Assembly (NCBI GenBank): GCA_021498095.1
Contig: JAIZWK010000001.1
Location: 690,001 to 722,000, forward strand
Direction of reading: 5' to 3'
Source: Candidatus Harpocratesius repetitus
GTDB lineage: Archaea; Asgardarchaeota; Lokiarchaeia; Sigyniarchaeales; Promethearchaeaceae
Length of the DNA stretch: 32,000 nucleotides
Positions 9,861 to 15,045 of this stretch are shown piece by piece. The first letter of the stretch is position 1. The number at the start of each line of letters is the position of its first letter. The notes beneath the pieces are model-generated. The model was given only the letters and a program-made list of their open reading frames with translations. It was not told the DNA's origin and ran no database searches. Both the position numbers and the translations under genes were made by a program.

Positions 9861-10127
9861 GTGGTTAACAACTATTTTACAATAATTAAGAAACCTTTGG
9901 TTACTGAAAATACATTTGATTTAATTGAAGATCAAAATAAAATTGTTTTTATTGTTGATAGAAAAGCTAATAAATATCAAATTAAGGAAGCAATTGAAAA
10001 ACTCTATAATGTTCAAGTTGCTAAGGTGAATACCTTAATAAATACCGAAGGAACAAAAAAAGCATTTGTTAAACTTCACCATGATTATTCTGCAGCTGAT
10101 TTAGCAATTAAATTAGGAATTTTCTAA
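9861..10127 (+). CDS. rpl23: 50S ribosomal protein L23 (uL23), GTG start
   Basis: [24 protein letters not shown] and KKAFVKL...AIKLGI motifs; canonical position after rpl3-rpl4. Confidence 0.97.
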
Positions 10128-10164
10128 TTTTATTTTTTTGTTATTTTTTGTATAATTTTTTTTT
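10128..10164 (+). terminator. Oligo-T tracts after rpl23 (archaeal-type terminator); forms the intron 5' exon
   Basis: TTTTATTTTTTTGTTATTTTTTGTATAATTTTTTTTT immediately follows the rpl23 stop. Archaeal intrinsic terminators are U-tracts; the function here is inferred. Confidence 0.5.
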
Positions 10165-10699
10165 GTGCGACAGAGTTAAGCTTAGTGGCAAAATTTCATA
10201 TAATTAGACCGTCTTTTCAGGGGACGCGTGGGACTCATGGCGACTTCAATTTCAATGATTGGGGCTCGAAAGCATCCATGAGAATGTACCGAAACTATCA
10301 ACTCTCGATTGGTGTAGGGCTACCCAGTAAAATTCCATGGCGAATTAGCATGAACTCGTGATTGAAGCTTCGTGAATTATACGCTGCGAAAGGAGAGTTG
10401 ATGTCTATTAGACGACGCAGCCGGACCAAACAGGCAAAAGCGTTAGGAACACATGGTGGAAAATCGTGTGTAACACCTGAACAAATAACGCTCGGAGTAA
10501 AGCGAGCGCCTACCGAATTTGTTATACGTTTACCATTAAGAACTCTGGAAACCTTCATCCCTGCTTGTGGCGAGATGAAGGGTGAGATTGGGAAAAAGCG
10601 AATGCCCCGAGTAATGTTGGGGATAGACCTATTGGTCAATCCGAAAGGATGCCCACTTCTCATGGCTCTACTTGAATTGGACGTATAGGAGACTTCTCC

Positions 10700-12229
10700 A
10701 TGACCGACATTTGCGAGACGAATCAACCCGTGCAAGGTAGTCAACACCACCAGCATGCCGATATTACATGGATTTTCATGAATCGTGAAGCTGCAAAACG
10801 TGGTGTGAAAAAGCTCCAACAACAGATATTTCAAGCAACTCGTGATAAGAACTTCTATACGGCTCGCCGACTTAAAAAGCTTTTATTTAAATCATTAAAT
10901 GCAAGATTTCTTGCCGTCCTTACAGTTACGTCCAACCAAGGTCGGTATACTCCAGATGTTGATGGAATTATTTTTAAAACACCTGAAGAAAAATGGGATC
11001 TTGTAGAAGATCTACGAAATATTAAGGAATATCAACCAAAACCCGTTCGTTTAGTGTACATTCCAAAACGTAATGGTAAGAAGCGGAAACTCGGTATTCC
11101 AACTATTAAAGATCGGGCAATGCAAATGTTGGTATATATTACAATGATTCCCGAATGGGAAGCACGTTTTGAACCTCACAGTTTTGGTTTTCGCCCAGGA
11201 CGAAGTCCTATTGATGCAGTCCATTATATCGGAGGAAATTTTGTTCCAAAGAAGGGAAAACGGCCACATCCGGGCTGGGTGCTTGATGCAGACATTTCTG
11301 CTTGTTTCGATAATATTAATCACAGTGCACTCCTCAGAAAGCTTCGTTATGAGCCCCAAATTGGTCTTATTAAAAGGTGGCTTAAAGCAGGCTCCATTTC
11401 TAAAATCGGATTTTCGTCTACCAATAAAGGTACACCACAAGGTGGTCCTATCAGCCCACTACTTGCCAACATTGCTCTTGATGGCATGGAACGAATATTT
11501 GGAATCTATAACAAATATGGAAGATATGTAAATCCTTCTCAACGACGTGGATCGAATAAACAATTGACAGTTTATCGATATGCTGACGATTTTATCGTTA
11601 CCGCACTTAGTAAAGAAATCCTAGAAGACTATGCATTACCAAAACTTAAAGAATTTCTTGAATCTCTTAGTTTATCATTAAACCACGCGAAAACCAAGAT
11701 TATTAACGTTTCAGAAGGTTTTGATTTTTTAGGTTTCCACTTTCATAGGTTTCATCGACGTGATGGCTCGGTTAAGCAGTTTATTTATGCTCCATGCCGT
11801 GACCGTTTAGATTCGTTTTTGAGGAAGTTGAAAATTTGGCTACGAAAATCTCAACACCTTGCTGTTGAAGAAATTATTACAGGATTAAATCGTAAAATTA
11901 AAGGTTTCTGTAATTAGTTTAAATGGAGTAATGCTCATAAAGCCTTTGTCTACCTTAACCATCGTATCTATAAGATGCTGTGGAATTGGGTAAGACATAG
12001 ACATCAAAGGAAACGTGGCGCAAAATGGTTAAAATATCGATACTGGCAACCAGTAGGAAAGAACAAATGGTTGTTCCACTTTAAAGGAGTAAAATTAATT
12101 GAATCTTACAAATTGACTACTCAATGGTGGAAACGACCTTCCGTTCGTCTTCAAACTTCTGTTTTCGACCCAAGTGCGGTTGACTATTGGAATAAGCGTT
12201 CTAATCAAGCAGTTTGGATTAACCCTTAA
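10700..12229 (+). pseudogene. ltrA: Group II intron RT/maturase with one in-frame TAG (11915-11917) and no HNH endonuclease domain
   Basis: RT0 (VKKLQQQIF...NQGRYTPDVDG), RKLGIPTIKDRAMQ, SFGFRPGRS, DADISACFDNI, GTPQGGPISPLLANI and catalytic YADD. Domain X reads GFCN*FKW and the frame continues (11975 is in frame with 10700) through LWNWVRHRH...VFDP...YWNKR to TAA at 12229. AGGAGA SD upstream of the start. Confidence 0.88.
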
Positions 12230-12256
12230 ATATTTAATGATTACGGGTGTGAGTCT

Positions 12257-12326
12257 GAGCCGGATGCGATGAAAGTCGCACGTCCGGTTCTGACGAACAG
12301 GGGGACTTATGTCTCCCCTGATTCAT
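12257..12326 (+). ncRNA. Group II intron catalytic domains V and VI
   Basis: DV is GAGCCGGATGCGATGAAAGTCGCACGTCCGGTTC (GAAA tetraloop, AC bulge). DVI is GAA-CAGGGGGAC-TTAT-GTCTCCCCTG-A-TTC-AT, with the branch A at 12321. Confidence 0.93.
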
Positions 12327-12636
12327 GCTTCCTGGTTTTTTATTATTAGTTTTAAGATGCAAATTTTCTTTAATTCGCTTAAATGAGCAAAACTTACATA
12401 ATTTTAATCTACAAGAAAAATAAGCGGGGTTAAAGACATACTTTTCTCGAAAGAGTGCTTTGGAATCCATTCTTAATCAATTTTATGTTACAATCACTAT
12501 AGGACATGGCTCTATTGAAAAAAAATTAAAATGCTCTCTAAAAGGGGGCATTACCCCCATTAGCTACATTTTTTTTCCTATTAAATCTAATTTCTTTTTG
12601 TACTACAATAATAGTTCATTTCATAATAAATAGAAT

Positions 12637-13020
12637 CTACGATTGGATGCTATTTTTAATTACGAAGGAACAATTCACAGACACCTTGGTTTGGACTTTT
12701 TCCCTCCATTTTTCGTTTAATTGAAATAATCGTTTAATTTCTGAATTATTCCACTCATTAAAGAGAATTTTTGGGCTAAATCGGTGCGGAACAATGGTAA
12801 TCCATAAGATTTTATGTTCATTTATGATTGTAATATATGCTTGAAGTCGCTGTTCTAAACCCTCAGGTGTTTTAAGACCAGTTTAATGCACACGAGTCTT
12901 AATCCCACTATTAATATTCTCCGCCAGATTATTTTATATAACTTTTGCCACAAATAGTCTTGTATTTCCTTTATAGCAACTGTAACTGCGGAGAGCATAT
13001 TTTTTACCAGTTTGAGAGTT
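12637..13020 (-). pseudogene. Decayed DDE transposase-like remnant (C-terminal part)
   Basis: One minus-strand frame gives about 128 codons with only two internal TAA: NSQTGKKYALRSYSCYKGNTRLFVAKVI*NNLAENINSGIKTRVH*TGLKTPEGLEQRLQAY... The NNxxExxNxxIKxR...GxK segment resembles the catalytic Glu helix of DDE transposases. The family cannot be assigned by eye. Confidence 0.35.
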
Positions 13021-13536
13021 TTATAAAAAATATCAATTTATGCATATCCCTGCTTTTCCTTGTCATAAGCTTTAAAATGGTACATACTTTGCTTAAAAAT
13101 TTCAGAATAGTTGCCAATAAGTTTTTTTTGAATTAAAATTTTGAAATAATTTAAAAAATAAGGCTTTTCTTAATTGATCCTTCCTTCTTAAAAATAGTCC
13201 GATTGGATTATAAAGTAGAAATTTTCTTAAAATCATATAATTTTTATGAGGTTATAGCAGAATTCGAAAAATTGAAGAAAATTCGGAAATCTTGCATCAT
13301 TTATCCATAAACTCCAAATCTATCCCAATTTTAAAATTGTCGAAAAATCGTTTAAGAAAAATATATATAATTGAGTCAATAATTCAAAGAAAAATGATGG
13401 AAATGTGAAATTCTTGACCGCATTTAAGGGTTTAAAAATGCCGACTCAAATAGTAATTGGATGCGCTGGAGTATTGTCGAAAATATTGGTCCAAAAGATA
13501 GAATTTGATTAAGATAAAAAAAATTGCTAGAGCCTC

Positions 13537-15045
13537 TTATAAAATATTTATAAATATTAATGATTTTGTGGAAAAAAATAATATAACAAAAAAGATAATA
13601 AAGAAAAGATCAATTTTCTGAAATTTATTTTTAGATGTCATTTTATTGAAAGAAAAGAGAATTACTATTAAAAAATAGAGTGAAATCAGAAAAATTCCCT
13701 CAATTCTTAAATTGTTAGTCGGAAATAGATTAAAATTAAGCGTATTTTGCAAATATAACTCATTTTTTGACAAAACTGATCTGAAAATGAAAATAAATAC
13801 GCTCAAGATACTCAAAATTATCGTTGAAATAAATTTAAATGTATTCGATTTTATCTTTATTTCTTTTAATATTAAATTCTTCTTCTTTTCGATTTTTATA
13901 TGTTGTTTAAAGATATGGTTAAGTATATAATAAAAATCAATACTTTTCTCACTATTTCGATTTAAAATTTGAAGAAACGTTTCTAATATAATTGAAATTT
14001 TTTGATCTTTCCCTTTTTTTTTAAGAAGATTAAAAAATTTAGATATTGGATTAAAACTTAAGTAAATTTTTATTAAATTTCTCTCTGAAATATTCTTAAA
14101 AGTCGAATTTTGAATTGATTCAAGTAATGCAAAATGAGCTGATGAGAACTGAAGATAATAACTCATCTTTTCAAGAAACTTAATTATTTCTAGTAGAGTT
14201 ATCTTATTATTCCTGCTATTATTTTCTGTTATTATTACTGGAAAAGAAATAATCCATCTTTTTTCAAGAAATACAAGTACCATAAGAAAAATTGATAAAA
14301 ACGAAAACCGATCAAGATTGGATTGAATATAGAAGAGATTTGCAAAGAAAAAGAGAATTGGGTAGAAAATTGTGATAAATGTCAAGATCTGCAGATGAGT
14401 TTCGAATTTTGATAAGAAAATCTCAAAGCGATATAAAAGTTTTTCTTCAAATTCTTCTACTAAAGAATGGTTTTTACTAAAAACTTTTGCTGAAATAAGG
14501 TGGTGATATAAATAATTAAATTCTTGAGAAAAAAATCTGATTTCCATTAGTTTTTCTTTTATACTTGCTCCAAAAAGAATTTCTTGGATTTTTTTTGAAG
14601 TATTTATTCCTAAAGTGGGAAAATATCTAAAAAAATTTATAATATAAACAAAAAAGTTTTCAGATTTATGAATAATTTGTGAATAAATTGTGAAATACAA
14701 GAGAAAAAAGCGATAAGAATCAATTTTTTTATTTTCTTGTTCTTTTGTTTCAATTAATAATATATTATTAGTATAGAAATATAAAATAAAAAAAGATGTA
14801 AGTAAAAAGGATAAAAATCCAGTACTTTTTGGTAAAAAAATAAAAATGATAAAATAAATTAATGTTAAACAAAAAAGAATTAAGAAATTCGCTTTTTTGA
14901 TCTGTTCATTTGTTATTCCATAAATGTATTCGATTCTATTTAGTTCTACTTTTTGATTTTTATTTTTAAAAAGAATTGGCTTTGATTTGAATTTTTGGCA
15001 CAAATTTATGTATAATTTTTGGAAATATTCATTAATTTCAATCAA
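13537..15045 (-). CDS. Pilus inner-membrane platform protein (TadB/TadC- or FlaJ-like, T2SS-F type)
   Basis: Three clusters of TM helices separated by two soluble domains; last gene of an operon with a pilus ATPase and prepilin peptidase. The call rests mainly on topology and context. Confidence 0.6.
   Translation of the reverse strand: MIEINEYFQKLYINLCQKFKSKPILFKNKNQKVELNRIEYIYGITNEQIKKANFLILFCLTLIYFIIFIFLPKSTGFLSFLLTSFFILYFYTNNILLIETKEQENKKIDSYRFFLLYFTIYSQIIHKSENFFVYIINFFRYFPTLGINTSKKIQEILFGASIKEKLMEIRFFSQEFNYLYHHLISAKVFSKNHSLVEEFEEKLLYRFEIFLSKFETHLQILTFITIFYPILFFFANLFYIQSNLDRFSFLSIFLMVLVFLEKRWIISFPVIITENNSRNNKITLLEIIKFLEKMSYYLQFSSAHFALLESIQNSTFKNISERNLIKIYLSFNPISKFFNLLKKKGKDQKISIILETFLQILNRNSEKSIDFYYILNHIFKQHIKIEKKKNLILKEIKIKSNTFKFISTIILSILSVFIFIFRSVLSKNELYLQNTLNFNLFPTNNLRIEGIFLISLYFLIVILFSFNKMTSKNKFQKIDLFFIIFFVILFFSTKSLIFINIL

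Follow-up and report, generated by a model that had tools for sequence, protein, structure and literature searches.

A predicted IIB/CL-type group II intron with specific exon recognition in a repeat behind an archaeal rpl23 gene

The locus behind rpl23

The window, the whole stretch of 32,000 nt that we analysed, belongs to an archaeal genome of 4.36 Mb (single contig, 31% GC). Pfam searches identified the gene run ABCE1-rpl3-rpl4-rpl23 on its + strand, and the TAA stop codon of rpl23 occupies 10125-10127. Behind this stop codon the sequence reads, in order, T4, T7 (10133-10139), T6 (10144-10149), GTATAA, T9 (10156-10164) and GTGCG at 10165, where a predicted group II intron begins. The following features were annotated.

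9861-10127, + strand: rpl23, last gene of the ABCE1-rpl3-rpl4-rpl23 run (Pfam Ribosomal_L23, E = 2.6e-19; ORF list)
10128-10143, + strand: native rpl23 3' flank, containing T4 and T7 (direct sequence reading)
10144-10164, + strand: 5' exon of the intron, which is the 5' end of the repeat RepA, T6-GTATAA-T9 (IBS2 at 10150-10157, IBS1 at 10159-10164)
10165-12326, + strand: predicted group II intron of IIB/CL type, GTGCG to GATTCAT (Rfam domain V-VI match, domain I covariation model, empty sites)
10700-12229, + strand: intron-encoded reverse transcriptase/maturase with no endonuclease domain (Pfam RVT_N, RVT_1 and GIIM)
12257-12290, + strand: domain V, 34 nt, with AGC triad and GAAA loop
12295-12324, + strand: domain VI, with a bulged branch-point A at 12321 (RNAfold of 12255-12326)
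12327-12575, + strand: 3' part of RepA, which is the 3' exon of the intron, 84-92% identical to the 3' flank of intron copy 2 and to intron-less loci
12649-13562, no strand assigned: two high-copy repeats (12649-13199 and 13238-13562), unrelated to the intron and given for context only (genomic BLAST)

The T9 stands directly before GTGCG, as the original prediction had stated. The same prediction took T9 for an archaeal oligo-U terminator. T9 belongs to RepA, which also occurs in the genome without the intron, and thus is not the native rpl23 terminator. Archaeal transcription terminates at oligo-T. On this basis the T7 upstream of RepA, the first terminator-like oligo-T behind the rpl23 stop codon, is the putative terminator.

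The region behind rpl23 looks like a dumping ground for mobile DNA, holding RepA, the intron and the two high-copy repeats. Genomic BLAST gave ~25 matches for the first repeat (~551 bp) and ~35 for the second (~300 bp), on both strands in each case, and both are probably MITE-like. The usual archaeal gene order rpl3-rpl4-rpl23-rpl2 is broken here, with rpl2 located ~187 kb away on the opposite strand (C1:887012-887392, minus strand). A short RepA-like fragment lies directly upstream of rpl2, after the stop codon of an unrelated gene, and could mark an old rearrangement breakpoint within RepA.

Class and boundaries of the intron

Rfam model RF00029 placed group II domains V and VI at 12255-12322 (54.8 bits). 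The solved structure closest to the intron protein is 6ME0_C, the T.el4h reverse transcriptase (E = 4.7e-71), ahead of LtrA (IIA; E = 8e-33) and the IIC reverse transcriptases (~1e-31); the CL grouping of the protein is based on these pairwise matches to solved structures. Because domain V has 34 nt with an AGC triad, and because the protein has no endonuclease and finds its nearest match in the T.el4h enzyme, the sequence classifies the intron as non-IIC, of the IIB/CL type. The original prediction had also called a non-IIC intron from the 34-nt domain V and the AGC triad, in agreement with this result. IIC introns are marked by a small domain I without EBS2 and by a 5' exon with a terminator hairpin; here domain I has 383 nt and carries EBS2, and we found no inverted repeat in the 5' exons, which are T/C tracts. 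The Rfam domain I-IV models (group-II-D1D4) gave no match to 10100-12500 even at E <= 10; these models derive from particular bacterial subsets, and the result has weak bearing on class. An nhmmer profile of domain I likewise found no match in 80 bacterial and archaeal loci encoding the nearest proteins.

The 3' end is ambiguous by 1 nt, as the G at 12327 may be intronic. The 3' junction reads CATG in four of the five copies; the G is missing from the empty RepA sites. The +1 position is G in the window copy (copy 1) and in three relatives (G020, G002:C46 and L147), and C in the empty RepA sites. Either the intron ends one base later, with a non-canonical CAUG end, or only G-bearing variants are targeted.

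RepA and the intron copies of the genome

The low-copy repeat RepA measures 190-270 nt and begins with T6-GTATAA-T9. The genome holds five full copies, two occupied by the intron and three empty, together with shorter fragments, and one more copy was found in a genome of the same genus. RepA was located at the following loci.

Window 10144-10164 and 12327-12575: RepA at copy 1, occupied by the intron
C1:88475-88742: RepA without intron
C1:1799020-1799216: RepA without intron
C1:3383890-3384079: RepA without intron
C1:887768-887810, minus strand: RepA

At the three intron-less loci (C1:88475, C1:1799020 and C1:3383890) the 21-nt leader, which reads T6-GTATA(A)-T9, is joined directly to CTTCCTGG. 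RepA mostly lies 0-30 nt behind a co-oriented stop codon, as seen at several loci. It occurs in two subtypes that diverge after ~150 nt, and in the related genome G002 its copy has lost 51 nt internally. We found no conserved ORF in RepA and no Rfam match. A small minus-strand ORF running across RepA from 12470 downwards is open only in copy 1; by eye, the copies at 88 kb and 3.38 Mb (e88k and e3383k) have an in-frame stop codon, and we rejected this ORF as a gene.

Besides copy 1, we identified copy 2 (C1:1130071-1132207, 92% identical, same RepA position), copy 3 (C1:1006866, 98% identical, truncated after 812 nt) and a further trace of 145 nt. The RepA of copy 1 resembles the empty copy at 88 kb, and that of copy 2 resembles the empty copy at 3.38 Mb. 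The two occupied repeats are thus of different subtypes, each with an intron-less sibling, indicating that the intron entered the same RepA position twice; judged from these sequences, two separate homing events are the most likely explanation. Copy 3 matches IBS1 only (AUUUUUU), as expected for an ectopic insertion, which it would appear to be.

An in-frame TAG (11915-11917) interrupts the maturase region of copy 1. The corresponding codon of copy 2 is TAT, and we rejected the idea that TAG is decoded as an amino acid. Copy 2 has a fragmented ORF with several breaks and starts with ATGCG, its first base being A instead of G. All three copies in the genome are defective, and the intron family is decaying there. 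None of them combines the intact ORF and the canonical splice bases of an active mobile intron; a frame of 514 aa is open in L128, a relative on a metagenome contig.

Domain I and the exon-binding sites

Domain I was aligned across copies 1-3, G020 and L128, and helix models were scored by pair counts. The resulting model contains 107 pairs, with 96.6% of cells paired and 44 pairs showing compensatory change, a covariation signal carried by three diverged domain I sequences only. Slid controls reached 32-41% paired. The predicted layout is the standard IIB architecture, with the following elements.

Stems I(i) and I(ii): domain I model
Ib hairpin, with alpha in its loop: domain I model
Ic with Ic1 and Ic2: domain I model
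Id stem: intron 166-171/351-356, 175-178/343-346, 191-195/338-342 and 203-208/329-334 (domain I model)
Id2 hairpin: domain I model
Id3 arm: intron 275-281/322-328 and 285-291/301-307, with five and three compensatory pairs, respectively
10216-10221, + strand: alpha, UUCAGG, in the Ib loop; partner alpha', CCUGAA, at 10476-10481 (helix 4 of the model)
10300-10306, + strand: beta, AACUCUC, in the Ic2 loop; partner beta', GAGAGUU, at 10393-10399 in the Id2 loop (helix 10 of the model)
10336-10338, + strand: candidate coordination loop CAU between Id(i) and Id(ii), from its position in the model
10374-10382, + strand: EBS2, (G)AAUUAUAC, in the multibranched loop of distal Id, with AAUUAUAC itself at 10375-10382
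10456-10464, + strand: Id3 terminal loop GUGGAAAAU, with EBS1 GGAAAA at 10458-10463

Two tertiary pairings were recovered in full. Alpha-alpha' (intron 52-57 with 312-317) has six pairs, 100% paired, of which two are compensatory, and beta-beta' (136-142 with 229-235) has seven, 100% paired, of which four are compensatory. Alpha' lies in the same arm as the Id3 terminal loop. A 10-bp pairing at 133-142/228-238 had first been taken for an ordinary stem and is in fact beta-beta'. A nested helix, 279-283/312-316, shares bases with alpha' and was set aside for alpha-alpha'. The RNAalifold nesting was not adopted as it stood: it left out beta-beta' and let the Ib stem run across alpha.

EBS1 GGAAAA is complementary to the last six U of the exon (-6 to -1). 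In L128 the Id3 loop reads GGAAAU and the exon has A at -6; in copy 3 the exon has A at -7, opposite U300. The EBS1 register is not uniquely fixed on such low-complexity targets, as GGAAAA also pairs with nearby U-runs. In G020 three extra bases (UCU) lie between the best IBS1 match and GUGCG; otherwise the pairing has one C-A mismatch.

In IIB introns EBS2 is placed in a multibranched internal loop of distal Id, a hallmark of the class (PMC8643678). This loop is the most variable stretch of domain I in the family, and it matches each intron's own exon. In copy 1, EBS2 AAUUAUAC forms 8 bp with IBS2 GUAUAAUU at -15 to -8, all Watson-Crick, and in G020, EBS2 GAAGAAAAG forms 9 bp with its own exon segment CUUUUCUUC at -18 to -10, again all Watson-Crick. 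L128 combines GAAAAAGGG with UCUUUUUUU through six Watson-Crick and three G-U pairs, and the fit between EBS2 and exon is imperfect in the truncated G008 and L141 copies. Across the family EBS1 is GGAAAA or GGAAAU, and EBS2 changes together with its exon. We demonstrated the EBS1-IBS1 and EBS2-IBS2 complementarity, the intron boundaries, the domain I helices, the empty sites and the defects of the genome's three copies at the level of sequence.

Since EBS2 is a perfect 8-bp complement of GUAUAAUU and EBS1 reads U6, the predicted target is a specific IIB site of ~15 nt, GUAUAAUU-U-UUUUUU, perhaps with a G after it. Exact matches to the 13-mer GTATAATTTTTTT number five in the genome, among them the copy 1 site and one empty RepA. 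None of the other four exact targets is occupied, and thousands of other T-runs are likewise unoccupied.

These results suggest a mechanism in which EBS2 AAUUAUAC would pair with GUAUAAUU (-15 to -8) and EBS1 GGAAAA with U6 (-6 to -1). C10336, a candidate EBS3 placed by the model, without covariation, may pair with the G at +1. The intron would have retrohomed into the ~15-nt site at the 5' end of RepA, 16 nt behind the rpl23 stop codon, with T9 read as part of a specific target and not as a generic terminator. Mobility would proceed by replication-fork priming, as in other introns without an endonuclease. Taken as a whole, the reading of a CL-type IIB intron without endonuclease, retrohomed via EBS1 and EBS2 into a ~15-nt site in RepA, is one that we consider probable. 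Its core, a new IIB/CL group II intron with canonical, specific exon recognition and located in a repeat, appears sound.

The intron family at gene ends

Searches for diverged relatives led only to the same archaeal order and to a few metagenome contigs. The small family spans three genera of that order plus these contigs. A pattern scan of metagenomes returned 29 contigs, of which four are family members.

G020: ORF-less intron of ~740 nt
G008: same archaeal order, truncated copy (G008:C242)
G002: intron at contig ends
L128: metagenome contig, full domain I, open protein frame of 514 aa
L132, L141 and L147: metagenome contigs

G008:C242 and L141 are truncated at the same point and followed by the same sequence, yet their upstream flanks differ. 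L147 (Ga0164318_10011813) and G002:C118 contain an internally deleted derivative, in which the first ~120 nt of domain I are joined to domain VI; this derivative lies at the same site as the G002 copy.

The original prediction proposed that other copies be collected and their 5' exons aligned, and the preference for U-tracts and gene ends holds across the family sites. The 5' exon ends in a T/C-rich tract in every family member. Nine sites have readable DNA on their upstream side, and in each case a co-oriented ORF of 92-488 aa stops 31-110 nt before the site. We estimated the base rate from a crude gene set of this genome, counting tracts (T6+, T8+, Y12+ and Y15+) within 100 nt 3' of a co-oriented gene: 9-17% of all tracts and 27-37% of intergenic tracts lie in such positions. 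Most sites are preceded by at least one T5+ run, and transcription of the intron would therefore depend on read-through.

From these exons the family appears to be tied to pyrimidine tracts behind genes, in a small sample of related members. The original prediction went further and suggested convergence on terminator targeting through archaeal U-tracts; the position of all nine sites behind co-oriented ORFs agrees with part of it, and its generic terminator reading is unsupported. A lineage-level preference for T/C tracts behind genes is a weaker proposition than terminator targeting, and is real enough to test. We tentatively suggest, as a possibility that falls short of an even chance, that this CL-type IIB lineage has specialised on oligo-pyrimidine tracts behind genes, the locations of archaeal terminators, through a poly-purine EBS1 and a mostly purine-rich, fast-drifting EBS2. 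The tracts would then act as putative terminators, and the gene-end bias would stem from targeting and not from the survival of harmless insertions. If true, base pairing would give this lineage a route to the safe harbour that bacterial IIC introns reach via terminator hairpins.

Alternatively, the intron could be an ordinary site-specific IIB intron whose ancestral target was T-rich by chance, the gene-end pattern being produced by selection and by the location of RepA. Selection that purges insertions in genes and promoters would yield the same pattern. Recognition is indeed canonical and specific, and RepA alone explains two of the three sites in this genome, RepA-like sequence being found directly behind stop codons at several loci. 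The sampled sites are few, the members are related, and a position behind a co-oriented gene is already found for 27-37% of the intergenic T/Y tracts. However, nine of nine sites, from four genomes and several metagenome contigs, is well above that rate. Furthermore, EBS1 stays conserved as poly-purine while EBS2 changes and is yet purine-rich in three of four variants, which suggests repeated moves between pyrimidine tracts. The pattern is also absent from more distant introns of the same order, including those in the same genomes, whose exons are purine-rich or mixed. We consider this explanation rather unlikely on balance.

The proposed EBS1 hairpin at 10489-10508

The original prediction placed EBS1 in a different loop, GAGUAAAG (10495-10502), which would read any archaeal oligo-U terminator loosely and make the intron a relaxed seeker of terminators resembling bacterial IIC introns. 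The letters on which it was built, CGCTCG-GAGTAAAG-CGAGCG at 10489-10508, are present. Three general observations are in keeping with this proposal: a U/C-rich tract behind a gene precedes the intron at every known family site, the purine-rich GAGUAAAG loop could wobble-pair with U-runs with one U-U mismatch, and the protein lacks an endonuclease domain like IIC proteins. The hairpin itself is not conserved. It shows no compensatory change in the five aligned members, and three of its six pairs break, in G020 and L128. Its bases are assigned as follows.

10489-10508, + strand (intron 325-330/339-344): 3' strands of Id3(i) and of the Id stem (domain I model)

The helices that compete with the hairpin (275-281/322-328, 191-195/338-342 and 203-208/329-334) have compensatory changes, and A332 of GAGUAAAG covaries with U205 (columns 205/344), as U-A in the three copies of the genome and C-G in G020 and L128. 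The absence of compensatory change in the hairpin and the covariation of the competing helices thus argue that 10489-10508 is not the Id3/EBS1 hairpin. An initial hand-built model that kept this hairpin was dropped, as RNAalifold and pair counts gave competing helices with compensatory changes. The fold of domain I, which the original prediction had named as the check on EBS1, puts EBS1 in the other loop, at 10456-10464.

Other evidence speaks against the GAGUAAAG loop as well. A near-identical motif, GGAGUAAAG, is found in cyanobacterial relatives whose exon is unrelated (ending in AUGGUAA), and every exon would have a pyrimidine opposite U334. A separate loop gives the perfect EBS2 pairings to specific exon segments, with 8 bp to GUAUAAUU in copy 1 and 9 bp to CUUUUCUUC in G020, which contradicts a loose reading of any oligo-U; the four vacant 13-mers and the vacant T-runs point the same way. 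Matches of UUUAUUY to the GAGUAAAG loop lie at varying distances from the splice site and were judged to be chance in T-rich sequence. We therefore regard the relaxed terminator-seeker as very improbable. What survives of the idea is that a purine-rich EBS1 reads the U-tract, through GGAAAA and U6 and not through the proposed loop. The findings that would speak against it were obtained in part: EBS1 lies elsewhere and EBS2 confers a specific non-U target, and the preference for U-tracts and gene ends stands. With low-complexity targets, a plausible purine loop is thus insufficient for calling EBS1, and covariation is needed.

A 3' extension as in Bacillus cereus B.c.I4, with splicing ~130-250 nt downstream of domain VI, would account for the ~90% identity of copies 1 and 2 over ~130 nt beyond domain VI, but its probability is close to negligible, as the same flank is joined directly to the 21-nt 5' flank at three intron-less loci and G020, G002:C46 and L147 carry unrelated sequence after GATTCAT(G).

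Comparison with known introns

The CL-type IIB1 introns of Thermosynechococcus (T.el4h / Th.e.I3; PDB 6ME0, 6MEC) encode by far the closest solved relative of the intron protein. The predicted archaeal intron shares with T.el4h the 34-nt domain V, the AGC triad, the bulged branch-point A, alpha-alpha' and beta-beta', as well as the location of EBS1 (terminal loop of Id3) and of EBS2 (a multibranched internal loop). It differs in its archaeal host and in its poly-purine or AU-rich exon-binding sites with a low-complexity target. The best tblastn segments against bacterial relatives are just 32-41% identical, and domain I is not detected at the sequence level against them.

Bacterial IIC introns such as B.h.I1 and GsI-IIC insert after intrinsic terminators. 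The archaeal intron resembles them in its intergenic position behind a gene and after a T-run, in its protein without endonuclease and probably in being transcribed by read-through only. IIC introns have no EBS2, their EBS1 is short, and what they recognise is a hairpin of DNA or RNA (PMC1702495, PMC8643678). In the archaeal intron, by contrast, domain I is full, EBS2 spans 8-9 bp, the 5' exon has no hairpin, and the protein matches IIC reverse transcriptases much more weakly.

RmInt1 of Sinorhizobium meliloti is an IIB intron without endonuclease that homes into the IS element ISRm2011-2. Both are of IIB type and without endonuclease, with a homing site in a repeated element that is read by EBS1 and EBS2 and of which occupied and empty copies coexist. 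RepA, unlike the home of RmInt1, has no ORF and cannot be recognised as an IS element, and the target is of low complexity. The protein lineage of RmInt1 is class D (PMC8643678), unlike that of the archaeal intron.

Recurrence at gene 3' ends is also seen in another lineage of IIB1/CL type. The introns at the groEL stop codon are reportedly treated by Michel et al. 2007. They have an endonuclease domain, a large 5'-subterminal insertion and one conserved target gene, whereas the archaeal family lies in T/C tracts behind unrelated genes. The groEL introns represent a IIB1/CL1 lineage specialised on a fixed genetic context (PMC12584367).

Group II introns of Asgard-type archaea bear on the origin of spliceosomal introns, and their choice of targets is almost undescribed. 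In a recent survey (bioRxiv 10.1101/2024.12.10.627823) the words 'terminator', 'intergenic' and 'insertion site' are absent. At the present locus the exon-binding sites of one such intron have been mapped, and its homing site is seen both occupied and empty within a single genome. The locus also gives a hint, open to testing, that T/C-rich DNA behind genes is where the lineage lives.

Two further observations concern the setting of the intron and its bacterial relatives. Four intron copies or fragments in the genome (C1:343873, C1:700165, C1:1006866 and C1:1130072) are all on the + strand, between 0.34 and 1.13 Mb. Replication-strand bias is known for introns without endonuclease, and this pattern could fit such a bias, or equally chance or gene-strand bias. 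Among the bacterial loci encoding the nearest intron proteins, L041 and L045 interrupt another reverse transcriptase gene within its YADD motif, indicating an intron inside the ORF of another intron. Their first bases form a 5'-terminal GUGCGAC...GUCGC hairpin, which is absent from the archaeal family.
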